From positions 1-31,228 of the forward strand of contig CAZARO010000001.1 of the NCBI GenBank assembly GCA_964487165.1: 31,228 nt of DNA. Direction: 5' to 3'. How positions within the stretch are numbered: position 1 is the stretch's first letter; every line of letters starts with the position of its first letter. A program made the position numbers and the translations under genes. Below, one piece after another: positions 13,512 through 30,092 of this stretch. A model generated the notes under the pieces. That model ran no database searches and had not been told where the DNA came from. It saw nothing but the letters and a program-made list of their open reading frames with translations. Source of the stretch: an uncultured Solibacteraceae bacterium. Lineage in GTDB: Bacteria; Acidobacteriota; Terriglobia; Bryobacterales; Bryobacteraceae.

Positions 13512-14726
13512 ATGGAACCCACGAGTGGCAATAAGACCGGAATCCGGGTTGGCCGAATTCTAAGCATTCTTATCGTGACCGCGGCAATCGTATTAGGTCT
13601 CGCGGTGGTTCATCATGCGGGCCGCTACCCGCGGACCGACGACTGCGAGGTTCTCGCGAATTTTATCGGGATTGCGCCGCAAGTCGAAGGCCCTCTCATC
13701 CGGCTAAATGTGCAGGATAATCAGTTTGTGAAAAAAGGAGATCTCCTTTTCGAAATTGACGACCGGCCGTATCGGTACATGCTGGAGAAAGCAATCTCCG
13801 AACAGTCCACGCTGGAGGGGCAGATTTCCGATGAGCGCCGGAAGATCGCGGCCCTGGTGAGCGCAGTCTCAGTTTCGGAGGCAAACATCCACAGCACGGA
13901 AGCTGACGTGATTCGATGGGCGGCCGCAGTCGATCAAGCCACGGCAGATGTTGCCGTCGCCGAGGAGGCTGTCAGCCGTGTGAAGGCCGAGTGGACTTAT
14001 GCCAACAACAACCTGCATCGAATTGAGCCGCTGCTGGTGAAGCAGTTTGTCACCGTCGATCAGGTTGACCGCGCCAGGACCTCAGAGGTCGCGCAGTCAC
14101 AAGCCTTGAAGCAGGCCGAGTCTCAACTATTACAAGCCAAGGCCGCGCTCAAGTCCACAGTCGCGCAGGAACAGCGCTCAGAGGCGATGGTCGCGCAGAG
14201 CAGGGCCCAGCATGAGCAGTCTCAGAACGCCGTCACTACACTGGAGCCACTCATCAATCAGCGGGGCGGGCGGGCTTCAGCCATCGAAACTGCTCAGTAC
14301 AATCTCACCAACTGTCGAGTGTACGCTCCGTTTGACGCCCGGGTGACGAATCTTACGATTGCCGAGGGCGCGTATGCGCACGTCGGCCAGCAAGTGTTCA
14401 CGCTAATCGACGCACGGACGTGGTGGGCGGTTGGGAACTTCCGCGAAGGGCAACTGCAGCACATCGTGCCGGGAATGCGGGCAGACGTTTACCTCTTGTC
14501 CAAACCGGACATTCGCTTTTCCGGCGTAGTGGATAGCGTTGGCTTCGGTGTGACACCGGACGCGGACGTGGTGGGCCGGTTCGAACAGGGTCTACCGGAT
14601 GTGCAGAGAACGCTGAACTGGGTACATCTCGCATCCCGCTTTCCGGTTCGCGTGCGGGTTGAACACCCTTCGCCGGATCTGTTTCGCGTGAGTGAGTCAG
14701 CCGTGGTAGTAATTCGCGGGCGCTGA
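13512..14726 (+). CDS. HlyD-family periplasmic adaptor (MdtN-like)
   Basis: N-terminal TM helix, PRTDD, IAPQVEGPL..L.VQDNQFVKKGDLLFEID lipoyl half, long coiled coil, VYAPFDARVTNL, and GLPDVQRTLNWVHLASRFPVRV. Confidence 0.9.
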   Translation: MEPTSGNKTGIRVGRILSILIVTAAIVLGLAVVHHAGRYPRTDDCEVLANFIGIAPQVEGPLIRLNVQDNQFVKKGDLLFEIDDRPYRYMLEKAISEQSTLEGQISDERRKIAALVSAVSVSEANIHSTEADVIRWAAAVDQATADVAVAEEAVSRVKAEWTYANNNLHRIEPLLVKQFVTVDQVDRARTSEVAQSQALKQAESQLLQAKAALKSTVAQEQRSEAMVAQSRAQHEQSQNAVTTLEPLINQRGGRASAIETAQYNLTNCRVYAPFDARVTNLTIAEGAYAHVGQQVFTLIDARTWWAVGNFREGQLQHIVPGMRADVYLLSKPDIRFSGVVDSVGFGVTPDADVVGRFEQGLPDVQRTLNWVHLASRFPVRVRVEHPSPDLFRVSESAVVVIRGR

Positions 14727-14742
14727 CGGAATCGAGAAAGTT

Positions 14743-15306
14743 ATGACCGTAATTCAGGAAAAGAAACAATTCGAGCATGTTGACGCAGGCAACGCAGTCT
14801 TCCGGGCGATCGTGCTGGCGATCTCATGTGTGATTACCTTCCGGCTCATCACCCATATTCTGGCTAGTGTGTACTCTATTTCCAGGGACGACAATCTTCT
14901 GGGAGGGATGTGGGCCGTGGTAGCTACGATTTTCGTATTCCGGCAAAGTCACGCGGAGAGTGTACACGCAGCCTTGTCGCGCATGTCCGCTACATTAATG
15001 AGCTTCGCACTCTGTTTTGTTTATTTGCTGATCCTCCCATTTCATGTTTGGGGGATGGCAGGGCTGATCGCGATCGGCGCAATCGCGCTGGCGATGATCG
15101 GCCGCGCGGAGGACATTATGACGACGTCGATTACAACGGCGGTGGTTATGGTTGTGGCTGCGATAGGTCCTGAAAACGCCTGGCGCGAGCCTATTCTGAG
15201 GCTTGTCGATACGGCGTTTGGAGCCGCGATCGGTGTGGGAGCAGCCTGGATTTGCGCCTTCAGCCCTCGCGCTGTAACCGGCGCAGTGTCGGATGGTCAG
15301 GAATAG
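14743..15306 (+). CDS. Small FUSC-like (FUSC_2/ArAE-type) membrane protein
   Basis: About 6 hydrophobic segments, GGMWAVVATIFVF...S..AALSRMSAT, and the ITTAVV...RLVDTAFGAAIG pattern typical of FUSC-type cores. Confidence 0.7.
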   Translation: MTVIQEKKQFEHVDAGNAVFRAIVLAISCVITFRLITHILASVYSISRDDNLLGGMWAVVATIFVFRQSHAESVHAALSRMSATLMSFALCFVYLLILPFHVWGMAGLIAIGAIALAMIGRAEDIMTTSITTAVVMVVAAIGPENAWREPILRLVDTAFGAAIGVGAAWICAFSPRAVTGAVSDGQE

Positions 15307-17454
15307 ATGGCGTCAATTGCACAAGCGCTTCCAAGCGCGGACAGCCGGGTCACCTGGTTCTCGGAGTTTCTGAAAGAGGAACTCGCCCCGTACCGGGGAA
15401 GGGCCCTGCTCGTGACGCGAATGGTAGTGGCGTCAACGCTCGTCATGATCGTCACTATGACGTTCCGGCTTCCCTATGGCGCATATGGCGCGATTTATGC
15501 GTTGATTCTTTCCCGGACAAGCTTGGAAGCTACTGCGAGCGCCGTTCGCATGATTGCCATTGGCTTCCTGCTGGCTGGAGCATACATCATCCTTGGACTC
15601 ATGGTCGCGCTGGCCGATCCGATCCTGCGCTTCGCATGGATCACCGCGGGATTCTTCGGCGGTTTCTGGGCGATGAGTGCCCTCAATAACTATGCCGCAT
15701 CGGGCCGATTCGGCTATTTGATCGCGATCACCGTCACGTTGTGGGACCGGCCCATATCTCCGGCCCCAAAGGTAGAGAGCACTCTTTGGGCAGTAGGAGT
15801 GATCACACTCGCGAGTATTATCGCCCTGCTGATGGAGATCGCGTTTGCAGCGTTCAGGACGTCCGACGATTTGGCCGAGGGCATGACAGAACGGCTGACG
15901 TGCGTAGAAGAACTGCTGACGCAATACGTGACCGGCGAAGCGGCCACTGCTTCCATCCGGACGACGCTCGCGCGCCTGGCGATGACTGGCACATCGCGAA
16001 TGCGGCTAATCCTCCGCCGTTCCGGCTTTGACCCGCAGTACGCGGCGCAAATGGGCGCCGTAGTGGCGCTAACCGGCCGGCTCGTGGACCTGGCCGCGAA
16101 CCTGCCGTATTTCTCCGGCCTCGTGCCGGAGGGCGATCGTGAGCGCGTTGCCAAAGTCGCGACTCATATACGAGAAATCCGCGACGGCGTCGCCGGAGGC
16201 TCGGTTCCGCAGGTGTCTGAATTCGAAGCTGGAGGCGGGGCTCCGTGCAGTCTTCCCCTCTTCGCCGAAATTGAACAAACCGTCTCGCTGATAGTGCAAG
16301 CTCTCGCGGGATCTAAGTTCCCGAGCGTGTTTGCGCCATCCCCGGATCTCGGCGCGGGGAGGGTTAAAACTTATCTCAGCGGCAAGCTGCTGGATCCTGA
16401 ACATCTTAGATTCGCCCTGCGAGGCTGTCTCGCGGCAACCAGCTGCTACGTGATCTTCAACGTTCTGTTTTGGCCGGAGATTTCCACCGCGGTGACGACT
16501 TGTTTCGTCACGGCTCTCACCACCATCGGAGCGTCCCGGCAGAAGCAGGTGTTACGCTTCGCGGGTGCCCTTGTCGGCGGTTTCGGTATCGGTTTCGGTG
16601 CTCAAATATTCATACTTCCCTACATCGACTCGATCGCCGGGTTTACGGTGCTGTACATCGCCGCCATCACCATCGCGGCCTGGATTGCGACATCGAGCCC
16701 GCGTCTCTCTTACTTCGGCGTGCAGTTGGGAGTGGCTTTCTGCCTGATCAACTTGCTGGAATTCAAATTTCAAACCTCGCTCGCTGTGGCTAGGGATCGT
16801 GTGGTCGGGATTCTGCTCGGGCTGTTCATGATGTGGCTGTTTTTCGATCACCTTTGGAGCACGCCGGCCGGTTTGGAGATGAAGCGGACATTCACTTCTG
16901 CCTTGCGGTTGCTGGGACGGCTCGCTCGGGGACCGGTTTCGAACGATCTCCGGAAGGCAATTGAGGACAGCTATTTGCTGCGCGAGGAAATCAACGATAA
17001 GTTCGACCGCGTGCGATCGCTCGCAGACGGAGTGCTTTTCGAACTCGGTCCCTCACGGAGCAGCGATCTCGAATTGCGAGCTCGGATTCGTCGCTGGCAA
17101 CCTCAACTCCGCGCCCTCTTCGTGATGCGGATTGCATTGCTCAAGTACCGCCTCCAGGCGCCCGGGTTCGAGTTGCTGGGTGCAGTTCGCCTGCGCCAGG
17201 AAGCGTACGACGATGTCTCCGCCAGGGCACTGGAGGAAATGGCGGATCGCATCGAGAGTCAGGTCCCGGGGATCGGAAGCCGCGTCGAACATAGGGACGA
17301 GTTGAAGCGGAGGCTTTACGAGGCCGAAGCCGAAGCGTCCCGGGATTTGCCGCATCCGCAGGCGCAGTCGTTCCTTACCTTGCTCCGCGGCGTAGACGCA
17401 CTAACAGACTCTCTCGCGGCGGAAATCGCGGAAGAGTCCCTCGCTCCGTCTTGA
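15307..17454 (+). CDS. FUSC-family inner membrane efflux component (MdtO-like)
   Basis: FLKEELAPYRGR start and two TM bundles. The second bundle has HLRFALRGCLAA...WPEISTAVTTC...STIGASRQKQVLRFAGAL.GG and VARDRVVGILLG. Its ATG directly follows the upstream TAG. Confidence 0.85.
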   Translation: MASIAQALPSADSRVTWFSEFLKEELAPYRGRALLVTRMVVASTLVMIVTMTFRLPYGAYGAIYALILSRTSLEATASAVRMIAIGFLLAGAYIILGLMVALADPILRFAWITAGFFGGFWAMSALNNYAASGRFGYLIAITVTLWDRPISPAPKVESTLWAVGVITLASIIALLMEIAFAAFRTSDDLAEGMTERLTCVEELLTQYVTGEAATASIRTTLARLAMTGTSRMRLILRRSGFDPQYAAQMGAVVALTGRLVDLAANLPYFSGLVPEGDRERVAKVATHIREIRDGVAGGSVPQVSEFEAGGGAPCSLPLFAEIEQTVSLIVQALAGSKFPSVFAPSPDLGAGRVKTYLSGKLLDPEHLRFALRGCLAATSCYVIFNVLFWPEISTAVTTCFVTALTTIGASRQKQVLRFAGALVGGFGIGFGAQIFILPYIDSIAGFTVLYIAAITIAAWIATSSPRLSYFGVQLGVAFCLINLLEFKFQTSLAVARDRVVGILLGLFMMWLFFDHLWSTPAGLEMKRTFTSALRLLGRLARGPVSNDLRKAIEDSYLLREEINDKFDRVRSLADGVLFELGPSRSSDLELRARIRRWQPQLRALFVMRIALLKYRLQAPGFELLGAVRLRQEAYDDVSARALEEMADRIESQVPGIGSRVEHRDELKRRLYEAEAEASRDLPHPQAQSFLTLLRGVDALTDSLAAEIAEESLAPS

Positions 17455-17590
17455 GGGTTTGACGGTGGTTGGTACAGTGCGGCAAGTGTCGAAACCCCGT
17501 CGAAGTGGCTGCAGTTCGCCCAGCTAGAAATCAAGACTCTGGCAAGACTTTTCATCTAACTCGATCATTTTCAAGCGGAGCCAGCCAACC

Positions 17591-19270
17591 GTGAAAACGG
17601 AACGCCAGGTGCACGACACTGGCCGAAAGGTAATGGCTTATGTCGACTGCGAAGCCGTCGCCAGTGGAACCGAAGGGGCTTGCTCTTCTTTACCCGGACC
17701 CGCTGAACGCCCCGCAACAGGGCCTTGGGGTCCACGAGTGAGCGGTAACGGCAATTCCAGCGCTGTCCCGCCCTTTCCGCAAGATTATCGGGCATCCGGT
17801 CTTCTGTTGCATGTTACATCCCTGCCTTCACCCTACGGCGTGGGCGATCTCGGACCGGCGGCATTCGCGTGGATCGATCGCTTGCACGACGCCGGCCAAC
17901 GATGGTGGCAGGGGCTGCCGATCGGTCCGACCGGATACGGGAACTCGCCGTATCAGGCGCTGTCATCGTTCGCCGGCAACAGCCTGCTAATCAGTCCTGC
18001 CGCGCTTGTTGCCGACAAATTCCTGCAGCAGGCCGACTGCGATTGTCACTTCCCGGCGGATGCAGTCGATTTTGACGGGGCGACTTCGTTGAAGCAGCGT
18101 CTGATCGCGAAAGCGTGGGAGAACTTCACTTCCGGCACTCGTCACGATCTGTGGCCGGCATACCAGAAGTTCTGCGAGGAGCAGTCGCATTGGCTCGATG
18201 ACTACGCGCTCTTTCGCGCGCTGAAAGACAAGTATCGGGGGGTCCGTTACCTGGATTGGCCGGCCGCACTTACCCGGCGCGAACAGAATTCGCTCACGCA
18301 AGCACGGCGTGAGTTGGCGATGCAAATCGACCAGGTTTGTTTTGCGCAGTTCCTGTTGTTCCGCCAAGCAGACAAGTTGAAAGAGTACGCTCATTCTCGT
18401 GGTGTCGGGCTGATTGGCGATTTGCCGTTTTTCGTCTCGCCCGATTCCGCGGACGTTTGGGCCAACCCGGAATTCTTCCTTCTGGACGAACAGCGCAAGC
18501 CGCGTGAGGTTGCCGGCGTTCCTCCCGACTATTTCAGCGCGCAGGGTCAATTGTGGGGAAATCCGGTCTACAACTGGGATGCTCTTCGCGCCACCGGATA
18601 CCGTTGGTGGATCGATCGCGCGCGTGCCTTGCTGGCGCATGTCGACGTGATTCGCCTGGATCACTTCCGAGGATTTTCTGCAGCGTGGCACGTACCGGCG
18701 GGATCGGCAACTGCGGAGTCCGGACAGTGGGTGCCGGGTCCGGGCGCGAATCTATTTTGTGCGGTGAAAGCCGAAATCGGCGGCTTACCGTTCATCGCCG
18801 AGGACCTGGGAACCATTACCGCCGATGTTCAACAATTGCGCGACCAGTTCCACGTTCCCGGCACGCGTGTCTTGCAATTTGCGTTCGACGGCCATCCGGA
18901 CAATCCGTACCTTCCGCCCAATTTTGTATCGAATGCCGTGGTCTACACGGGTACGCACGACAACGCTACTACGCGGCAATGGTACGAAGAGTTGCCCGAT
19001 GATCGAAAACAAATTCTTTGGAGCTATGCGAAGCGAAGTCCGGCCGATAGCGCAGAAGCTGCTCCGGAGCTGTTGCGTCTGGCGTGGACGTCCACTGCCG
19101 CCTTGGCGATTGCACCGTTGCAGGATCTGCTCAATCTGGGCCGCGGCGCCCGGATGAATGTCCCCGGCCATGCCGATGGCAACTGGCGCTGGCGTTGTCC
19201 GGAAGACTTGCTGTCCGGGCCGGCATTTCCGTGGCTGCGGGAGTTGACGGCAGCGTCTAAGCGTTCCTGA
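17591..19270 (+). CDS. malQ: 4-alpha-glucanotransferase (amylomaltase, GH77); true start uncertain (17591, 17633 or 17738)
   Basis: RASGLLLHVTSLPSPYGVGDLG, SPYQALSSFAG, IGDLPFFV, AGVPPDYFS..GQLWGNP, catalytic RLDHFRGF / IAEDLG / TGTHDN, and MNVPG...GNWRWR. Confidence 0.96.
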   Translation: MKTERQVHDTGRKVMAYVDCEAVASGTEGACSSLPGPAERPATGPWGPRVSGNGNSSAVPPFPQDYRASGLLLHVTSLPSPYGVGDLGPAAFAWIDRLHDAGQRWWQGLPIGPTGYGNSPYQALSSFAGNSLLISPAALVADKFLQQADCDCHFPADAVDFDGATSLKQRLIAKAWENFTSGTRHDLWPAYQKFCEEQSHWLDDYALFRALKDKYRGVRYLDWPAALTRREQNSLTQARRELAMQIDQVCFAQFLLFRQADKLKEYAHSRGVGLIGDLPFFVSPDSADVWANPEFFLLDEQRKPREVAGVPPDYFSAQGQLWGNPVYNWDALRATGYRWWIDRARALLAHVDVIRLDHFRGFSAAWHVPAGSATAESGQWVPGPGANLFCAVKAEIGGLPFIAEDLGTITADVQQLRDQFHVPGTRVLQFAFDGHPDNPYLPPNFVSNAVVYTGTHDNATTRQWYEELPDDRKQILWSYAKRSPADSAEAAPELLRLAWTSTAALAIAPLQDLLNLGRGARMNVPGHADGNWRWRCPEDLLSGPAFPWLRELTAASKRS

Positions 19271-21458: not shown

Positions 21459-24400
21459 CTACCAACCGATCGCTACCAGCAGCGTCTCCGGATTCTGGCA
21501 TGAGACATCGCTCGAATAGCCGCCGGCATCGTTATAGGGGAACGCATATTGCTGGCCATTGATGGCGATGGATGAAATGAATTGCGCGTAATGGTCATAG
21601 GGTTCCGTCTGGAAGAAATACGCGGGGTTCCCCCAGATACCTTGCGAGACCAGCGTACCGTTCGGATTGAACGTTCCGGGGCCGGCTGCGTGCCGGTAGA
21701 TAGCGGCGGAAAGATCGGGATAGGAACCCAGGCCCGATCCGTTCGCGCCCGCTTCCGGTATCGTCAGGCCGTTGGTTGACCAGACTTGGCTGATATAGGC
21801 GTTGTAATAGTTGGCGTACGGCCCGCCGGCGTTGAATCCGCCCGTACCAGGTTCGACGATCCGGTAAGGAGCATAGGGCGGTTGAGCTTCGGCCTGAAAA
21901 TCCGCCGGAACCTGGTTCAGATAGCGCGCGAACGTGGTCGCGCGGCTCTCGGCGAACGTCTCGGCATTTTCACCGACAGCCACATCGGTCCCGTCTCCAC
22001 AGGTCAGCCGCGCGGCCAGCTTGATGCCCAGCGCGTCCACTCGCGTGGTGTCGAAGTTGATCGACGTCGGCCCGATGGTGTACTCGATAAAGTCGTAGTA
22101 GTTGGTGCTGCCCTGGCCTACTGAGCCCAGATAGAAGTACATGCGTCCGGCGGAGTTCGCGGGCATATCGAACGTCGGCTGTGCCGCGATCGAGTTCGTG
22201 GTGGTGGTGCCGTTCAGGTTCACACTCCAGAAGACCTGGCCGTCCGCATAGACGCCGTTGGTGCGGTTCAGGAACTTGAACATCATCACGTTCTGCGCGG
22301 GAGGGACGTTGCTGGAATCCCAGAAGGGCGGATTCGATCCCAGAGGCGCGGTGGCAGCGCTTACTATAGGGGAAGCCAGCGAGGTACCGGAGGAATTACT
22401 CGCCTCGACTACGTAGTAGTAAGTCGTACTTGCGTTGGCCAGTACGTCCTGGAACATGTTGGCTTTGGTGGTGCCGATCTGATTGCTGCTCGCGGGTGCG
22501 AAGCCTGGGGTCGTTGCTCGGTAGACGCGATACGTCACAACGGCCGTCCCGGAGCTGGTGGCGGTGCTGGCATTCCAGCTCAGGTCGATTTCGTTGGCTG
22601 ACGCCGCTGTCGCCGTCAGGCCGGTCAACTCTGCGGGAGTGCCGGCCGTGGAGACGCCAAGCGTGGTAACCCCAACCGGGCCCGCAGGGGTCGATGTTAC
22701 CCCAGAGGCGTTGATCGCTTCCACCAGGTAGTAGTAGGTGGTGGAAGCTTCGAGCGGCGCGGCGCCGCCGTTGTCCGCAAAGTAAGTCATCGACCAAGTG
22801 GTGCAGACCTGGTAGGGGCTGCTCGCGGCGGTGAGGTTCGAAGACTGCGAGGCTGTGCACACCAGGTTCGAGGTGCCGGGCGTAAAGTTCGGGGTGGTGC
22901 TGCGGAATACCAGGTAGTTCACTCCCGCGGTCGGGCTCGCGGCCCAGTTCAAATAGGTCTGGGAACTGGTGGATGCCACCGCCGTCAAAGACGTCGGCGC
23001 CGCTACCGGGCCTCCTGTCCCACCCGTATTGATCGTGTAAGCTGCCGAGGCCACTGCGCTGTTGGTGTAGCCAGGCGCCACCGCGATCGCCTGGATGGTT
23101 TCGTTCGAGCTCACCGCGATCGCTGAGCTATAGACGGCTGACGACGTGGTCGGCGTCGAGCCGTTGGTAGTGTAGTAGATGGTTGCGCCCGTCGTGGTAT
23201 CGCTGAGCGCGACACTCTGTGCGGATGTATAGGTTCCTGCTGGAGGCGTGAAACTGGGAGCCGCGGCAACGGGCGGTGGCGGAGGCGTCGTGCTCAAAGA
23301 TTGCACCTCGATGCCCGCGATCTCCGCGTTGTCCTTGACGGTAGCGAGTGCAATCACAATCTGGCCGGATGCATTGGCCGTCACCGCGAATTGCTCCACC
23401 ACTGCTTTGTCGGGCCCGCCGGCAGCCTGGATGATATCGAAGTTAGTCAGCACCTGCGTGCCGTTGATGGTCACGTTGAACACGCGCTGCCCCACTTGCG
23501 TCCAGTAGTATTCGCTGAAGTGCAGCCGCACCGTATAACTCACTCCCGCTGTGAACCCGGGGATGGTGTAAGTGAAGTTGCCGAAGCGCTGTGTCTGGTA
23601 CACTGCTTCCGGCGCTGGATTGGTGACGCCGGCGGTACTGATGGTCGCGGTGTTGTTGGACGTAGAGCCGCCGGTGAAATATTCATCGGCCACAAAGTTC
23701 CCCACCGCGCCGCCGCCGGCGTGGATCGCGATCACGTCGGTAGAAGTTCCGGTGGCCGCGCTCTGGGTGGTAGCGCTGGCCTGTGCCGAAGGCGTCGACG
23801 CCCCCGCCGAACTGCTGGCTTCCACTACGTAGTAGTAAGTAGTGGCAGCGGTCAAGCCGGTATCGGCATAGTTCGTGCCATTGGTGCTGGCGATCTGATT
23901 CGTGCTGGCAGGCGTAAAGCCCGAAGTGGTGCTTCGAAACACCAGGTAGCCGGCGCCGCTGGTCGCGCTGGCGGTCCAGCTCAGGTTGATCTGGCTGGTG
24001 GAGGCCGGCGTAGCCGTCAGCCCGGCGGGCGCTGCCGGCGGCGGTGTGGATTGGGAGCTGGCCTGCTCGATCTCGATGCCATTGATCTCCGCGTTGTCCT
24101 TCACCGTAGCGAACTGAATCACGATCTGGCCGGAACTGTTCGCCGTCACCGGGAACTGCTCCACCACCGCCTGTTCGGGCTTGCCGGCGGCCTGAATGAT
24201 GTCGAAGTTAGTGAGCACCTGCGTACTGTTGATGGTGACGTTGAATACGCGCTGCCCCACTTGCGTCCAGTAATACTCGTCGAAATGCAAGCGGACGGTG
24301 TAACTGCCACCGGCCGTGAATCCCGGAATCGTGTAGCTGAAATTGCCGAAGCGCTGCGTCTGGTACACAGCTTCCGGAGCGGGATTCGTTACCCCCGCCG

Positions 24401-27400
24401 TGCTGATGGTCGCGGTGTTGGCCGATGTAGAACCGCCGTTGTAATACTCATCGGCGACATAACTACCGACAGTTCCGCCGCCGGCGTGAATATCCAGCAC
24501 ATCCCTGGAAGTGCCGGTGGACGCGCTCGGAGTAGTGGCGCTCGCCTGCGCCGAGGGCGCCGAGGCACCTGCCGAATCGCTGGCTTCCACCACGTAATAA
24601 TAAGTCGTGGACGCTGTCAGGCCGGTATCCGCGTAGGTCGTGGTGTTCGTGCTGGTGATCTGATTCGTGCTGGAAGGCGTGAAGCCTGAAGTCGTGCTCC
24701 GGAACACCAGGTAGCCGGCGCCGCTGGTCGCGCTGGCGGTCCAGCTCAAGTTGATCTGGCTGGGCGAGCCCGCGGCCGCAGTCAGGCCCGTGGGCGCGGC
24801 TGGCGGCACTACCGATTGTCCGCCCCCTTGCTCGATCTCGATGCCATTGATCTCCGCGTTATCTTTCACCGTGGCGAATTGAATCGCGATCTGGCCGGAA
24901 GCATTGGCTGTCACCGGGAACTGCTCCACCACCGCCTTGTCCGGCCCGCCCGCGGCCTGGATGATGTCGAAGTTGCTGAGCACCTGCGTGCCGTTGATGG
25001 TGACATTGAACACGCGCTGCCCTACTTGCGTCCAATAGTACTCGGCGAAGTGCAGCCGCACTGTGTAGCTGCCGCCCGCTGTGAACCCGGGAATAGTGTA
25101 AGTGAAGTTACCGAAACGCTGCGATTGGTAAACAGCTTGCGGCGCTGGATTCGTCACGCCCGCCGTGCTGATGGTCGAGGTCGTGTTTGAGGTAGACCCG
25201 CCGTTGTAGTATTCGTCGGCGGCGTAACTTCCTACCGCTCCTCCGCCGGCGTGAATGTCCAGCACATCGGTGGAACTGCCGGTGGCTGCGCTCTGGGTGG
25301 TGGCGCTTGCCTGCGCGGAAGGCGCGGAAGCGCCGCTCGAATCCACTGCTTCCACCACATAGTAGTAAGTAGTGGCAGCCGTCAACCCGCTATCCGAGTA
25401 TGTGGCCGTGGTTTGGCCGGACACCACCTGATTGCTTGCGGCCGGAACAAATCCCGCGGTTGTGCCGCGGAAGACGCTGTAGCTCACCGAACAAGGCGTG
25501 CCGGCTGTACTCGCTCCCCAAGCGAGAGCGATCTGGCTGAAGGATGTCGCTGTCGCAGACAGACTTCCCGGTACGGAGGGAGCCGCGGCGCAGGTGGCGG
25601 TCGTCACCGTGAGCAATACCGAGTTACTCAGTACGCTTCCACCGGCGTTGGTCACTCCCACGCTGAACTGCGCCCCGTTGTCGGTAGCGGCAGTCGCCGG
25701 CGTCGTGTAACTGCTGGCGGTCGCGCCGGTAATAGCTGTCCCGTTTCTGTACCACTGGTAAGTAAGAGTTCCCGGGCCGTTGGCGGCCACCGTAAAGCTG
25801 GCGGTCTGCCCCGCCGCGACGGTCTGCGGAGCGGGCTGCGTGGCGATCGTGGGAGGCATAATCGACGCTCCCGTGTCGCACACCACTCCGCCGGGGAAGT
25901 TATTGGCAACCTGCCAGCTCGATTGTCCCGCATAGGTGACGAAAGCGGCGTTGTTGCTGTCCGCAGGATCGGGGGTTGAGGTCCAGGTGCTCCAGGGCTG
26001 GGGGAATGCGCAGGAGGCCGAGTTAGTTCCGCTGATGCCGAGCGCTTCCGCTTGTGTCGGCAGCCGCATGCTCTGGCTGCTGCAATACGCTTGCGCAATC
26101 GGTTGAGTGTATTGCGCTCCCTGGCTATTCGCACCGGTGTAAGTGTTTTCCGCCCGCTGCCACGTCAGGCCGCTGACGTTGTCGCGCACTGTTGAGGAAC
26201 TCAGGATGGTATAACGCTCCGTGGCGCCGCCGCACTGGGGCACGTTGTAAACCTGCATTTCGTATAACGAATATCCGTACTGGGTGGCGCGCTGTTGGCC
26301 GTACATGCGGACATAGCGGCCATGCACCGTCGGAAAGGTAAGATTCTCTACTCCGCCTGCGCCGTCGCTGTTGCTATAAGCGAAGTTCCAATTAGTGTTG
26401 TCGGTGGAGTATTGAATCTGGTATTGCGTGGCGTATGCATTCTCCCAGTAGAGAATCACGTTGTCAAAGGGTTGAACCGAACCGAGGTCGATTTCCACCC
26501 AGGACGGGTCCACGCCGATCGCGGAGCCCCAGCGAGTAGTCAGGTTCCCGTCGTTGATATAGTTTGGCGTCAGTCCGCCGTTCTGCGAGGAACTGGCGGT
26601 GGCCGGCTGATTGAGAGCCAGGTTGACGCCCGGAGGAGCGATGGTCAACGTGGTCACATTGCTGGTGACGTTGCCCGCAGCGTTCGTCACTACCACGGTA
26701 TAGTTGCCGGCATTAGTCTGCTGGACTTGGAAGATACTATAAGACGCGGCGTTAGCACCAAGAAGGTTGACGCCGTTCAGTTGCCATTGATAGGTGAAGG
26801 GGGCAGAGCCGGAGACTCCGACCGTAAATGTTGCCGGGTCGTTCGCCAGTACGGAGAGACTTACCGGCTGTTGTGTGATTCCTGGCGCGACCGCGGCGGC
26901 TACCGTCAGCACCGCGGCCGTGGAAGTCACCGAATTGACCGGATTGGTAATGGTGACCACATAACTGTCGCCATTATTGCCCGCCGCCAATTCGGGAGTG
27001 GCATAAGTGGAGGCTGTGGCGCCACCGATAGAGGTGCCGTTTCTGTACCACTGGTAGGTGAGTACCGGCGAGCCGGTGGCGGCGACCGACAACTGCGCTG
27101 TCTGCCCGACATACACCGTCTGGCTAGCCGGCTGGGTGGTAATCGCCACGGCAGCCGGCAGATCTACCGTAAGCGTGGCGGCAGTCGATGTGGCCGAGCC
27201 CAGGCCATTACTCACGGTCATGGTAAAAGCGCTGTTATTGTCGCTGGAAGCCGTCGGGAGAGTTGTATAGCTCGCACCGGTGGCGCCAGTGATCGCACTG
27301 CCGTTCTTGTACCACTGGAATGTCAGGGGCGCGGTGCCGGTCGCGGTAACCGTGAAAGTCGCCGGCTGGCCCGCTGTTACGGCGGTGTTCACCGGCGGCA

Positions 27401-30092
27401 AGACGATTGCCGGTGCGGCGGGCGGAGGAAGGAACGAGGGAACGGGCTGGATGGTATACGTCGCCGATCCCGAAATCAGGCCGGGCCCGGTGGCCGTCAC
27501 CGTGACGGTTCCAGCGGTGAATTGGCTCATCACGGCGATTTTGGTCATGCCGCCCTCTACCTGCAGTTCGGGATCTCCAGGCGCATGGTAGTTGAACGCA
27601 CTATTGCCGGCAGCTGTGGAGTAGGCATCGGAGCCGTTTGCCACATACTGTTCGGTGCCACCCAGGTAGGTGGCCGGTCCACTTACGGAGAAGGTCAGCG
27701 TGTCGGCTGCGGTGGGAACCACCACTCCATTCGCATCCTGCACCTGGGCCGTGACGAACGCCACGTCGGACCCGTTAGCCGTCACAGCAAAGCTGGTTTC
27801 GTCCGGTTTCACCAGCTCGGGCACCACAGAAAGCACGATTTTGCTCTCTGCGCCGGCCGTAGTCTTGGTGTCCGTCGCTAAGACGTCCCCATACTGATCG
27901 AGACAATCCGCCTCTACCGTGCCTGCCTGCCAGTTCACCGCCCATGAGGTTTGAAACGGCATTATGGTGGTGCTTTGAGTCAAGTTAGCACTGGAGTTGG
28001 AGTCCCAACTATTCGGCGTTTGGATGGCGCCCTGTTGAACGCCGTTAATCAACAGGCGAACCGCCGGGCAATTACTGAAGGCGTTCACCTGAATGGGAGC
28101 CGATGCCTGGTAAGCACGGTTCCAGTGATGCGCCAGATGAACTACCGGCTTGATGGAGAAGGGCGTCCACGCCGCTTCATAGATGTAATACAGCAACTTG
28201 GGGAAGCGATTCATGTCCACCATGGAAGCGCCCAGAGCGCGCACGCTGGCCTGGTAGGTAGCCTGCTGCGCTGTGTTCAAGTACTGCTGATATTCCGCGT
28301 ACAGGCCGTTCTCGCCGGGCGAATCGGCAAAGTACCATTGCGCCATTCCAAAGGCATTGGCCTGCCTCCCTTGGCGCCAGTTATCCAGGAACGGAGCGGC
28401 GAACGCAAGCTCGTAATCGTAGGCCAAGCCACGGGCAGTGCCGTTCCCCCAATACTCCGCGCCCCACGCCGGATTATTCGGGAACTGGTCCTTGACCCCC
28501 ACTTCACAACCCTGCAGCGTGCACCCCAGCATATATCCGTTCGCGGGGTCAGGTGTGCGATCCGCGGCGACGCGCGTATTGATAGGATCCCAAGCCTGAT
28601 CGATTGCCAGAAGAGCTGCCCCGATAGTCTCGTCCATCGTGCCATTATTCGACTCCCAGTCCAGAATTGAAGGATGGCTACGATCGCGGACGATCATGTC
28701 GCGATGCAATTCTTCCTTCAGAGTCACATCGTCGGCGGGCGGCGTGGAGAAAGCATCTTCACCGTCGCCGCTTGGCTGATCGATCATGATGCCATAGGCG
28801 TCGGCCGCGTTCACGAACTCCTCGCTGGTAGTGGAGTGACCCGGACGCCAGATACTTCCACCGGCTGCGGCAAGTTGCGCCAGGTCGCGCCACTGCTGCT
28901 CTTCCGGAACCGAGGATCCGAGCGCGGGATAATCGTAACGTCCCGAAGCACCCCATAAGTACATTGGATGACTGTTGAAATAAGGGAAGTTATGATCCCA
29001 GGTAATTATTCGGATGCCGAGCGGGCTTTGGGCCGAATCCACCACCGCGCCGTTCACGCTGACGATATGGTAGACCTTATACATATAAGGTGTCCCATAA
29101 GTGCTATTATTCGGGTACCAGAGCGTGGGATTGTCTACCGTAATCTGCTGATCGAACATGGGGGTCGCCGCGGATGGGTAAGTGCTCGGAGTCATCGGCG
29201 GCACTGTTTGCGTGACGGGCGCCGCGGATGCCACAACGTTGCCGTTGGCATCCACGATTTGGGTAGTCAGAGTAACCTGTTGCGTCGCCGCCGTCTCATT
29301 AAGTACATTCGTCTGCACTTCCACCACGGCTGATGCCGCCTGCGCCGTGCTGTTAGGCGCCGGCGTCTCGGATACCGTGGCTACATAGGTGCCCCACGTT
29401 TTTTGATTGGAATACACGTTCACCGGGATATGCACCTTATTCGTGATGAACATGTACGCCGGGCGGAACAAGCCTGCCTCCGCCTGTCCGAATCGATAAT
29501 CTCCCGAGAAGGTCGGTTGTTCGAAGAACGAATTGTTCCTCGAAACGCGCACGGCCAGCACATTATCGGTCGCTCCGTCGGCGTGAAGGTATGGGGTCAA
29601 ATCGACGAGGAACGGTATGAAACCAATCACATGCGATGCGCTGGCGTTGGCGGATACGGCACTGATACCCGGCAGGAGGGTGCCATTGATATAAACTTGA
29701 GCGCCCGTGTGAGCGCCCTCAAACTCCACCATTACCTTGCTGTTCGCGTACTGCGTGCCAAGCGTGAAGTGCAGTCGATACCAGATGTTGCCGCCGTTCA
29801 GATCGCCGTCACCGCCGCCTGATTGTACATTGAGAAAGGATGTGAAATAATTCGCGCCGTGTGGAATGCCTACCGCGGTCCAACTGGAATCGCTAAAGGA
29901 AGGCGTGGCAAACGACGGCGAGTCCTGGTCTTTGACATACAGCCATTGGCGTTGTCCCGGCATGCCAGACGATAAGTTGATAGTAATCCTGTCGGAAGTA
30001 GGTAGCGTTGTTTCTACCTGTTGGGCACTAATATTGCCCGTGAACAACCATGCCGCCAAAAACACTGTTATAGTCAAAAGTAGACGATTCAC
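21459..30092 (-). CDS. Giant secreted modular glycoside hydrolase: SP - GH2 - DUF4982/Ig-like - Ig x3 - CBM32 - DUF1566(Lcl) - Ig - (FN3-malectin) x3 - chitobiase-C-like (Fn3-associated) - FN3 x2 - GH64
   Basis: 2877-aa ORF, RBS GGAGG 6 nt before GTG, signal peptide ending ISA-Q. GH2 motifs VEFEGAHTGAQVYING, LGIRIITWD and RDRSHPSILDW. Ig YQWYRNG motifs; CBM32 NLALNQPATASS..DGNLTTRW..YSLYEMQVY; Lcl VRDNVSGLTWQR..MRLPT; malectin YTVRLHFAEYY..GQRVFNV; APSFTPPAGTY..TIYYTTNGSTP; GH64 DFIEYT..TRVD and YAFPYND. Confidence 0.9.
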   Translation of the reverse strand: MNRLLLTITVFLAAWLFTGNISAQQVETTLPTSDRITINLSSGMPGQRQWLYVKDQDSPSFATPSFSDSSWTAVGIPHGANYFTSFLNVQSGGGDGDLNGGNIWYRLHFTLGTQYANSKVMVEFEGAHTGAQVYINGTLLPGISAVSANASASHVIGFIPFLVDLTPYLHADGATDNVLAVRVSRNNSFFEQPTFSGDYRFGQAEAGLFRPAYMFITNKVHIPVNVYSNQKTWGTYVATVSETPAPNSTAQAASAVVEVQTNVLNETAATQQVTLTTQIVDANGNVVASAAPVTQTVPPMTPSTYPSAATPMFDQQITVDNPTLWYPNNSTYGTPYMYKVYHIVSVNGAVVDSAQSPLGIRIITWDHNFPYFNSHPMYLWGASGRYDYPALGSSVPEEQQWRDLAQLAAAGGSIWRPGHSTTSEEFVNAADAYGIMIDQPSGDGEDAFSTPPADDVTLKEELHRDMIVRDRSHPSILDWESNNGTMDETIGAALLAIDQAWDPINTRVAADRTPDPANGYMLGCTLQGCEVGVKDQFPNNPAWGAEYWGNGTARGLAYDYELAFAAPFLDNWRQGRQANAFGMAQWYFADSPGENGLYAEYQQYLNTAQQATYQASVRALGASMVDMNRFPKLLYYIYEAAWTPFSIKPVVHLAHHWNRAYQASAPIQVNAFSNCPAVRLLINGVQQGAIQTPNSWDSNSSANLTQSTTIMPFQTSWAVNWQAGTVEADCLDQYGDVLATDTKTTAGAESKIVLSVVPELVKPDETSFAVTANGSDVAFVTAQVQDANGVVVPTAADTLTFSVSGPATYLGGTEQYVANGSDAYSTAAGNSAFNYHAPGDPELQVEGGMTKIAVMSQFTAGTVTVTATGPGLISGSATYTIQPVPSFLPPPAAPAIVLPPVNTAVTAGQPATFTVTATGTAPLTFQWYKNGSAITGATGASYTTLPTASSDNNSAFTMTVSNGLGSATSTAATLTVDLPAAVAITTQPASQTVYVGQTAQLSVAATGSPVLTYQWYRNGTSIGGATASTYATPELAAGNNGDSYVVTITNPVNSVTSTAAVLTVAAAVAPGITQQPVSLSVLANDPATFTVGVSGSAPFTYQWQLNGVNLLGANAASYSIFQVQQTNAGNYTVVVTNAAGNVTSNVTTLTIAPPGVNLALNQPATASSSQNGGLTPNYINDGNLTTRWGSAIGVDPSWVEIDLGSVQPFDNVILYWENAYATQYQIQYSTDNTNWNFAYSNSDGAGGVENLTFPTVHGRYVRMYGQQRATQYGYSLYEMQVYNVPQCGGATERYTILSSSTVRDNVSGLTWQRAENTYTGANSQGAQYTQPIAQAYCSSQSMRLPTQAEALGISGTNSASCAFPQPWSTWTSTPDPADSNNAAFVTYAGQSSWQVANNFPGGVVCDTGASIMPPTIATQPAPQTVAAGQTASFTVAANGPGTLTYQWYRNGTAITGATASSYTTPATAATDNGAQFSVGVTNAGGSVLSNSVLLTVTTATCAAAPSVPGSLSATATSFSQIALAWGASTAGTPCSVSYSVFRGTTAGFVPAASNQVVSGQTTATYSDSGLTAATTYYYVVEAVDSSGASAPSAQASATTQSAATGSSTDVLDIHAGGGAVGSYAADEYYNGGSTSNTTSTISTAGVTNPAPQAVYQSQRFGNFTYTIPGFTAGGSYTVRLHFAEYYWTQVGQRVFNVTINGTQVLSNFDIIQAAGGPDKAVVEQFPVTANASGQIAIQFATVKDNAEINGIEIEQGGGQSVVPPAAPTGLTAAAGSPSQINLSWTASATSGAGYLVFRSTTSGFTPSSTNQITSTNTTTYADTGLTASTTYYYVVEASDSAGASAPSAQASATTPSASTGTSRDVLDIHAGGGTVGSYVADEYYNGGSTSANTATISTAGVTNPAPEAVYQTQRFGNFSYTIPGFTAGGSYTVRLHFDEYYWTQVGQRVFNVTINSTQVLTNFDIIQAAGKPEQAVVEQFPVTANSSGQIVIQFATVKDNAEINGIEIEQASSQSTPPPAAPAGLTATPASTSQINLSWTASATSGAGYLVFRSTTSGFTPASTNQIASTNGTNYADTGLTAATTYYYVVEASSSAGASTPSAQASATTQSAATGTSTDVIAIHAGGGAVGNFVADEYFTGGSTSNNTATISTAGVTNPAPEAVYQTQRFGNFTYTIPGFTAGVSYTVRLHFSEYYWTQVGQRVFNVTINGTQVLTNFDIIQAAGGPDKAVVEQFAVTANASGQIVIALATVKDNAEIAGIEVQSLSTTPPPPPVAAAPSFTPPAGTYTSAQSVALSDTTTGATIYYTTNGSTPTTSSAVYSSAIAVSSNETIQAIAVAPGYTNSAVASAAYTINTGGTGGPVAAPTSLTAVASTSSQTYLNWAASPTAGVNYLVFRSTTPNFTPGTSNLVCTASQSSNLTAASSPYQVCTTWSMTYFADNGGAAPLEASTTYYYLVEAINASGVTSTPAGPVGVTTLGVSTAGTPAELTGLTATAASANEIDLSWNASTATSSGTAVVTYRVYRATTPGFAPASSNQIGTTKANMFQDVLANASTTYYYVVEASNSSGTSLASPIVSAATAPLGSNPPFWDSSNVPPAQNVMMFKFLNRTNGVYADGQVFWSVNLNGTTTTNSIAAQPTFDMPANSAGRMYFYLGSVGQGSTNYYDFIEYTIGPTSINFDTTRVDALGIKLAARLTCGDGTDVAVGENAETFAESRATTFARYLNQVPADFQAEAQPPYAPYRIVEPGTGGFNAGGPYANYYNAYISQVWSTNGLTIPEAGANGSGLGSYPDLSAAIYRHAAGPGTFNPNGTLVSQGIWGNPAYFFQTEPYDHYAQFISSIAINGQQYAFPYNDAGGYSSDVSCQNPETLLVAIGW
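21462..22310 (-). other. GH64 (beta-1,3-glucanase, thaumatin-like) module of the giant protein
   Basis: FKFLNRTNG, GRMYFYLG, YYDFIEYT-x-DTTRVD (Glu2670/Asp2686, 16 residues apart) and YAFPYND near the C-terminus. Confidence 0.75.
23300..25594 (-). repeat. Three tandem 765-nt (255-aa) FN3 + malectin units inside the giant gene
   Basis: TCTCCGCGTT starts at 23321, 24086 and 24851. ACCAGGTAGCCGGCGCCGCTGGTCGCGCTGGCGGTCCAGCTCA starts at 23941 and 24706. All offsets are exactly 765. Confidence 0.95.
28150..29990 (-). other. GH2 module (sugar-binding, Ig-like and TIM barrel domains) of the giant protein
   Basis: GH2-type sequence order and motifs. Putative nucleophile Glu546 lies in AWGAEYW (28455-28457). 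The acid/base position reads WESNNG instead of WxxxNE. Boundaries are approximate. Confidence 0.75.

Follow-up and report, generated by a model that had tools for sequence, protein, structure and literature searches.

Enzymes of clan GH-A are the textbook case of a fixed catalytic pair, carried on strands beta4 and beta7. In glycoside hydrolase family 2 (GH2) the acid/base member of this pair is the Glu of an 'NE' motif in loop 4, within the wider signature WxxxNE, and the nucleophile is an invariant Glu at the end of beta7, aided by a conserved Arg on beta2. GH2 was split into 23 subfamilies in 2025; the exceptions to NE reported there comprise SD in GH2_16, SE in GH2_14 and TV, NA or NQ in some members of GH2_19, and an acid/base exception is already accepted inside the family for GH2_16, GH2_19 and GH2_21 (PMC12243196). 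In Talens-Perales 2016 (PMC5145203) acid/base loss in GH2 goes unmentioned. The closest described relative of the protein studied here is P17_GH2, from the ulvan locus of Formosa agariphila (UniProt T2KN75), whose structure 6HPD is described as 'the structure of a beta-glucuronidase from glycoside hydrolase family 2' and was assigned to GH2_21, a subfamily in which all four characterised members are beta-glucuronidases (PMC12243196). In the passage of that paper dealing with the lost residue, which cites Reisky 2019, E402 of T2KN75, another and highly conserved Glu near the catalytic site, is hypothesised to replace the acid/base. We describe here a giant secreted multidomain glycosidase encoded by a single open reading frame (ORF) at 21459..30092 on the minus strand of a window (the whole analysed stretch of 31,228 nucleotides) from an uncultured Solibacteraceae bacterium (GenBank assembly GCA_964487165.1, contig CAZARO010000001.1). 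Its GH2 head belongs to what sequence comparison places as a deep, uncharacterised sister clade of GH2_21. The loss of the acid/base and a candidate substitute are already published for that neighbouring subfamily; what is new is the clade itself, a group from soil bacteria that has Gly where the Glu once stood and joins GH2-like and GH64 parts in giant proteins, together with the comparative evidence that the canonical Glu is lost in step with gains in loop 3 and at the residue after the motif's Trp (W+1). A literature search found no description of a giant GH2-GH64 family, and nothing further on P17_GH2 or 6HPD.

In the giant protein the GH2 signature reads WESNNG (W479-E480-S-N-N483-G484, 28641..28658; all features of this gene lie on the minus strand), and residues 469-484 translate directly as RDRSHPSILDWESNNG. 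The codons give Trp479 as TGG, Glu480 as GAG (28653-28655), Asn483 as AAT (28644-28646), Gly484 as GGC (28641-28643) and Glu546, the putative nucleophile on strand beta7 (AWGAEYW), as GAG (28455..28457). The Asn of the NE motif is thus present, with Gly484 in place of its Glu. That Gly484 occupies the acid/base position follows from the HMMER alignment to the canonical GH2 beta-galactosidase structures 7CWD, 4YPJ and 8Q2H, in which 'HPSILDWESNNG' stands over 'EPSIIMWSIGNE' without a gap. These readings bear out a preliminary description of the locus, made from the letters alone, which had pointed to the missing acid/base Glu, to the retained nucleophile and to a Glu at W+1.

Absence of the canonical acid/base Glu is fixed throughout the family and is no accident. 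Hundreds of close homologues came from a search over 5.8 billion proteins. When the best 120 were aligned with the query (n=121), Glu480, Asn483 and Glu546 are each found in 121/121 sequences and Arg416 is invariant, with position 484 being Gly in 114/121, Ser or Ala in the remainder, and never Glu. A genomic scan, taking one genome per species, gave 80 related loci, and WExxNG together with xEYW is encoded at 80/80. The preliminary description had considered a base error unlikely, the Gly codon being two substitutions from Glu, and it had proposed an alignment to hidden Markov models (HMMs) of GH2 and a count of WExxNG homologues as checks; GGC is indeed two substitutions away from GAA or GAG, and both checks uphold the loss. 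A sequencing or assembly error, or a pseudogene, is refuted by the intact 8.6-kb ORF, the two-substitution distance and the motif in 80/80 genomes, and we regard its probability as negligible. The hosts of the 80 loci include Acidobacteriaceae (Granulicella, Tunturiibacter, Terracidiphilus), Dyella, Luteibacter, Rhodanobacter, Silvimonas, Andreprevotia, Amantichitinum, Kofleriaceae and others. The closest genomic relatives are a 'Candidatus Melainabacteria' metagenome-assembled genome from a bog (81%, on a partial contig) and, as the best named genus, Granulicella sp. S156 (79%). In a handful of WExxNG-clade representatives that are distant or fragmentary (P0269, P0273, P0275, P0262 and P0258) the nucleophile column of the HMM alignment lacks a Glu; these could be misaligned or truly inactive members.

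The head spans residues 25-890 (27423..30020) and shares with P17_GH2 the same five domains, a sugar-binding beta-sandwich, an immunoglobulin (Ig)-like domain, a TIM barrel, DUF4982 and GH2 C5, as delineated by Pfam, phmmer, AlphaFold2 and Foldseek. Pfam matches within it are PF02837 (weak), PF00703, PF16355 and PF18565; the catalytic (beta/alpha)8 barrel (residues ~362-660, 28113..29009) is divergent, and the TIM-barrel model PF02836 scores 19.5 bits, just below its cut-off of 21. Across the whole head (query residues 25-884) the best solved relative is 6HPD, with a phmmer E of 1.2e-66. An AlphaFold2 model of the head, built on 68 sequences, reached a predicted local distance difference test score (pLDDT) of 87.2 and a predicted template modelling score (pTM) of 0.90. 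With this model Foldseek ranked 6HPD first (template modelling (TM) score 0.77, root-mean-square deviation 3.3 Å), with canonical GH2s of the BgaD/BgaA type behind it; the top matches were exclusively GH2 structures (TM 0.66-0.77), and the domain architecture is that of GH2.

Table S3 of PMC12243196 lists E509, N446, W447, R382, H385 and W571 as key residues of 6HPD, and the 6HPD sequence that we rebuilt from the alignment matches these numbers exactly. By HMMER and BLASTP alignments they correspond to E546, N483, G484, R416, H419 and W586 of the query. The nucleophile, the Asn of the NE motif, the beta2 Arg and loop-2 His (Arg416 and His419, 28836..28847) and the loop-8 Trp that forms the aromatic wall of the -1 subsite (Trp586, 28335..28337) are therefore kept in both lineages, and the canonical Glu is lost in both, 6HPD reading WEGGNW where the query has WESNNG. 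The earlier suggestion of a GH2 subgroup with a non-canonical catalytic arrangement stands; the phenomenon as such is not novel, since 6HPD has the same loss. The two lineages also have in common a loop-3 Glu (E402 and Glu445), the W+1 Glu, Arg507 and Arg512.

They differ in other respects. GH2_21 is only ~28-30% identical to the query clade and forms a separate neighbor-joining (NJ) clade. At the canonical position, which is non-acidic in both, the query clade has Gly, whereas GH2_21 has Trp, Gln, Tyr and others (Trp447 in 6HPD; Gln, Trp, Tyr or Gly among the representatives of its clade). Loop 3 reads PSGDGE in the query and PGV[SD]GE in GH2_21. Members of GH2_21 are single-module proteins of ~960 residues without extra modules, mostly from Bacteroidota and fungi; the query, in contrast, has 2877 residues with Ig, F5/8C, Lcl_C, malectin, fn3, CHB_HEX_C and GH64 modules, and its clade consists of giant multimodular proteins of Acidobacteriaceae, Dyella/Luteibacter, Silvimonas and Kofleriaceae.

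The residue that may have taken over from the canonical Glu is Glu445, in D443-G444-E445 of the beta3-alpha3 loop (28758..28766). T2KN75 has 981 residues, and its numbers are obtained by subtracting 9 from the 6HPD index; its E402 is the Glu in 'MPGVSGES' and aligns with Glu445 of the query ('QPSGDGED') in HMMER, in MAFFT and in an HHalign comparison of the two clades (probability 100%, E 1.4e-39). BLASTP shifts loop 3 by two residues and pairs E402 with Asp443. We discarded this pairing because it would put Glu445 on E404, which is variable in GH2_21, whereas Glu445 is kept in 120/121 family sequences and is invariant across 68 sequences spanning both clades. Position 443 is always Asp or Glu (n=121), and a regular-expression search found PSG[DE]GE at 79/80 genome loci. 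In the AlphaFold2 model, DSSP places Glu445 in the loop after beta3 (436-440), and Asn483-Gly484 in loop 4, following strand 476-480. Further orientation comes from E. coli LacZ (GH2_10), represented by a fragment that is 100% identical to the PDB sequence of LacZ. Against LacZ the family HMM sets Arg416, His419 and Asn483 on R388, H391 and N460, and Asp443 and Glu445 on E416 and H418, although the match is weak (21 bits). In LacZ the Mg2+ bound by the acid/base E461 is also coordinated by E416 and H418, so that the Asp443/Glu445 part of loop 3 would adjoin the canonical acid/base site; we consider this placement as suggestive only. LacZ differs in that E461 is kept as acid/base and the loop-3 residues act in metal ligation only.

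Co-variation across more distant barrels points in the same direction. With the barrel (residues 341-680) as query, HMMER found 1471 matches at E ≤ 1e-3, 51 of them at E ≤ 1e-30, among 1.84 billion cluster representatives. The best 150 of the 1471 were aligned to the family HMM, and four motif classes emerged. Class A, the query's clade, combines PSGD[GN]E in loop 3 with WExxNG at beta4 and loop 4; class B, which includes P17_GH2, combines PGV[DS]GE with WEGGN[QWY]; class C, canonical GH2, has WSxxNE and a loop 3 without conserved Gly-Glu; and class D, an unassigned clade, has GWQ in loop 3 and WExSE. Among the 87 domains that cover the region, the W+1 Glu and the canonical Glu never occur together, neither in the 57 domains with the former nor in the 23 with the latter. 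A loop-3 Glu accompanies the loss of the canonical Glu in 48/57 of the W+1-Glu domains, so that W+1 Glu and loop-3 Glu without canonical Glu make up 48/87 of all domains, and the reverse combination, canonical Glu without either of the others, is found in 22/23. Arg507 and Arg512 (28557..28574, around beta5) are confined to classes A and B, the clades that lack the canonical Glu. In an NJ tree these two classes are sister clades separate from C, with a mean barrel identity of 28% between A and B and of 25% between A and C. Members of class D (P0319, P0330, P0333, P0340, P0385 and P0387) have the 'GWQ' loop 3 and 'WE[TS]SE[ST]'; they keep the W+1 Glu, and an acidic residue stands immediately before the canonical position. 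By sequence this class seems to have kept an acid/base of the 'SE' type, one residue upstream; because it has the W+1 Glu together with this apparent 'SE' and without a loop-3 Glu, the W+1 Glu probably has an older role of another kind, for instance in tuning a pKa, in a salt bridge or in binding sugar.

We propose that residues 25-890 form a complete and probably active retaining exo-glycosidase module in which the general acid/base has shifted away from the loop-4 'NE' Glu, whose position is now Gly484. Glu445, the equivalent of E402 of P17_GH2, would most likely extend into the space freed by Gly484 and serve as acid/base, with Glu546 on beta7 remaining the nucleophile and Arg416, His419, Asn483 and Trp586 retaining their usual roles. 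Glu480, Arg507 and Arg512 would have been gained in the same lineage and would probably shape the site or tune it electrostatically, and the two arginines may bind an anionic (uronic acid) substrate. On balance we favour this account as a whole, an active head in a sister lineage of GH2_21 with a relocated acid/base, and we hold the assignment of the acid/base to Glu445 with moderate confidence. A placement of another Glu at the acid/base site, which the preliminary description had named as evidence against an unusual mechanism, is essentially what the passage on E402 in PMC12243196 reports for the homologue 6HPD.

Several points weigh against this account. Glu445 was placed relative to Glu546 through alignments and through DSSP and pLDDT output, not from coordinates, and BLASTP moves the very loop concerned by two residues, onto Asp443. 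The role of E402 in GH2_21 is itself only a hypothesis in the passage of PMC12243196 that describes it; the identity between the two clades is low, and the query clade is without a characterised member. Glu480 is equally invariant and, over the 87 domains, perfectly anti-correlated with the canonical Glu. Lastly, the genes that neighbour the relatives and the modules fused to them (GH16, GH64, GH1) hint at beta-glucan, and glucuronides are not an obvious substrate from this side.

Exceptions of other kinds are known both within GH2 and elsewhere in the clan. In the exo-beta-glucosaminidases of GH2_16 (CsxA, PDB 2X09) the NE motif is likewise altered and the enzyme still active, but there NE has become SD and an Asp at the same position acts as acid/base, whereas the query has Gly there and its candidate comes from another loop. 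GH2_19 members with TV, NA or NQ (e.g. PDB 7XYR) also represent natural acid/base loss within GH2; they are furanosidases in which the loss is sporadic and no compensating Glu has been described, in contrast to the fixed loss and the co-varying new acidic residues of the query clade. Plant myrosinase (GH1) is a retaining clan GH-A enzyme without an acid/base Glu. It has Gln at the acid/base position and no substitute carboxylate, its substrate has an excellent leaving group, and ascorbate serves as base. The analogy with myrosinase is unnecessary for the query because the latter has a conserved substitute Glu, and the cofactor dependence that the preliminary description had considered is accordingly not needed.

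Glu480 itself may have become the acid/base, with Glu445 merely supporting, and the preliminary description had drawn attention to this residue as a possible substitute. Its invariance extends to GH2_21, it avoids the canonical Glu without exception, and in the AlphaFold2 model strand beta4 ends exactly at Glu480, at about the barrel height of Arg416 and Glu546; the conserved Leu477 and Trp479, alternating with a small residue at 478, suggest that its side chain faces the barrel interior. However, Glu480 lies four residues upstream of the canonical position and would sit deeper in the barrel; the crystallographers of 6HPD, according to the passage in PMC12243196, picked E402 and not the W+1 Glu of that enzyme, E434; and class D, in which the W+1 Glu is found beside an apparent 'SE' acid/base in the absence of a loop-3 Glu, suggests that its role predates the relocation. 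We consider a catalytic Glu480 unlikely, and Glu445 in loop 3, through its alignment to E402, to be the better candidate. It is also conceivable, if improbable, that no residue of the enzyme acts as acid/base, and that a carboxylate of the substrate (e.g. that of a uronate), an exogenous cofactor as in myrosinase, or a water molecule on a metal bound by Asp443, Glu445 and Glu480 takes its place. The canonical Glu is after all gone in every family member, Asp443 and Glu445 align to Mg2+ ligands of LacZ, and the known relatives cleave glucuronides, substrates that bear a carboxylate of their own. Such mechanisms are speculative, however, the passage cited (PMC12243196) already draws attention to a conserved Glu close to the site in the homologue's crystal structure, and a direct catalytic role is the simplest account of the strict conservation of Glu445.

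A bolder variant treats the clade as a new GH2 subfamily with a different catalytic apparatus, built from Asp443, Glu445, Glu480 and Gly484; this could be a pair of carboxylates, or a proton relay through a metal or water where LacZ binds its Mg2+. Its substrate would be something other than a beta-glucuronide, and it would work as one part of a two-headed GH2-like plus GH64 enzyme directed against fungal or exopolysaccharide cell-wall glycans targeted by soil bacteria; this we regard as rather unlikely. The lectin role suggested in the preliminary description, which would make the head a non-catalytic relic of GH2 and a binding module for the C-terminal GH64 domain, is very improbable. It could appeal to the lost catalytic residue, to the many binding modules and the second catalytic domain in the same protein, and to the sub-threshold Pfam model of the barrel. 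A pseudo-enzyme would show relaxed conservation of its remaining catalytic machinery, but more than 100 sequences from several phyla show no variation at Glu546, Arg416, His419, Asn483 and Trp586 or at many other positions of the barrel; moreover, relatives that share the loss are active enzymes, and many family members are stand-alone heads of ~900 residues with no other catalytic domain. The head is probably, judged by these conserved residues, an active retaining glycosidase with a relocated acid/base, neither dead nor lectin-like.

As to what such an enzyme would cleave, homology and the arginines common to GH2_21 make a beta-glucuronidase our best guess, and we infer an active head with a beta-glucuronide-like substrate. 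Proteins of the query clade are annotated as 'beta-galactosidase' or 'DUF4982 protein', and this annotation is probably wrong. A lineage in which the acid/base has moved to another loop would illustrate how catalytic residues migrate in evolution, and the sister clade gives independent comparative support for the relocation hypothesis in GH2_21. It also offers many cultivable sources, among them Dyella, Luteibacter, Granulicella and Silvimonas. Cys524 and Cys529 (LGCTLQGCE, ~28506-28523, in the loop before beta7) are invariant in the query family and absent from 6HPD; they could be a disulfide pair or part of a metal site near the active site.

The gene as a whole is single and intact, with a GTG start and 2877 codons of uninterrupted sequence, and its domains were assigned with Pfam. 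A probable Sec signal peptide, read from the sequence, covers residues 1-24 (MNRLLLTITVFLAAWLFTGNISAQ, 30021..30092); AlphaFold2 predicts an N-terminal helix there followed by a low-confidence linker, and in HMMER the homology to 6HPD begins at residue 25, just past it. The non-catalytic middle (residues 891-2531, 22500..27422), delineated by Pfam and by script, contains four Ig/I-set domains, an F5/8 type C domain, Lcl_C, three fn3-malectin modules, CHB_HEX_C and more fn3. The three fn3-malectin modules of 255 residues follow each other in gapless tandem (residues 1500-2264, 23298-25592) with a period of 765 bp, which is beyond the reach of Tandem Repeats Finder and was measured by script. 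They are mutually 67-84% identical in protein and 68-80% in DNA; this triplication looks like a recent internal duplication, and it is a potential assembly hazard.

The C-terminal domain (residues 2532-2877, 21462..22499) resembles the beta-1,3-glucanases of GH64. It matches PF16483 above the cut-off (E 7.7e-22) and the structures 9VP9 and 5H9X (E ~1e-25), with 'FIE' and 'RVD' conserved. Glu2670 and Asp2686, its putative catalytic pair, are apparently intact and show the 16-residue spacing of the catalytic pair in GH64 (LPHases), and the protein would thus carry two putative catalytic heads. The GH2-GH64 fusion is conserved, since a GH64-like C-terminus is also present in 58/80 genomic relatives of the head, whose proteins measure mostly 1,700-3,400 residues. 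The conserved joining of this head to a GH64 beta-1,3-glucanase, in giant proteins that soil bacteria secrete, suggests an uncharacterised system that breaks down cell walls or exopolysaccharides.

In Granulicella sp. S156, Silvimonas terrae and Andreprevotia chitinilytica the giant gene is flanked by genes for GH16-malectin, malectin/fn3, Ig-GH64 and GH1 proteins (L004:3980-7765 and 14465-18658; L015:5560-7095; L034:5203-6525), which suggests a neighbourhood concerned with the breakdown of beta-glucan, cell walls or exopolysaccharides. The flanking malectin/fn3 ORF is truncated; a GH64-like tail can be seen by eye in its translation, and Pfam gives no GH64 match there. In our window, positions 1-21424 hold ordinary housekeeping genes, namely a histidine kinase with a LuxR-type response regulator, a sigma-54 activator, two alpha/beta hydrolases, DUF4331, cytochrome bd subunits I and II, malate:quinone oxidoreductase (Mqo), an OEP/HlyD/FUSC efflux set and MalQ (GH77); no polysaccharide utilisation locus and no clue to the substrate were found among them. 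A gene for a GlgX-type debranching enzyme is convergent with the giant gene. Long ORFs of up to 528 residues run antisense to the giant gene on the plus strand (26295-27881, 27951-28670 and 23301-24689). Their translations are rich in Arg and Gly and of low complexity, and we interpret them as a side effect of the G+C-rich coding strand rather than as genes.

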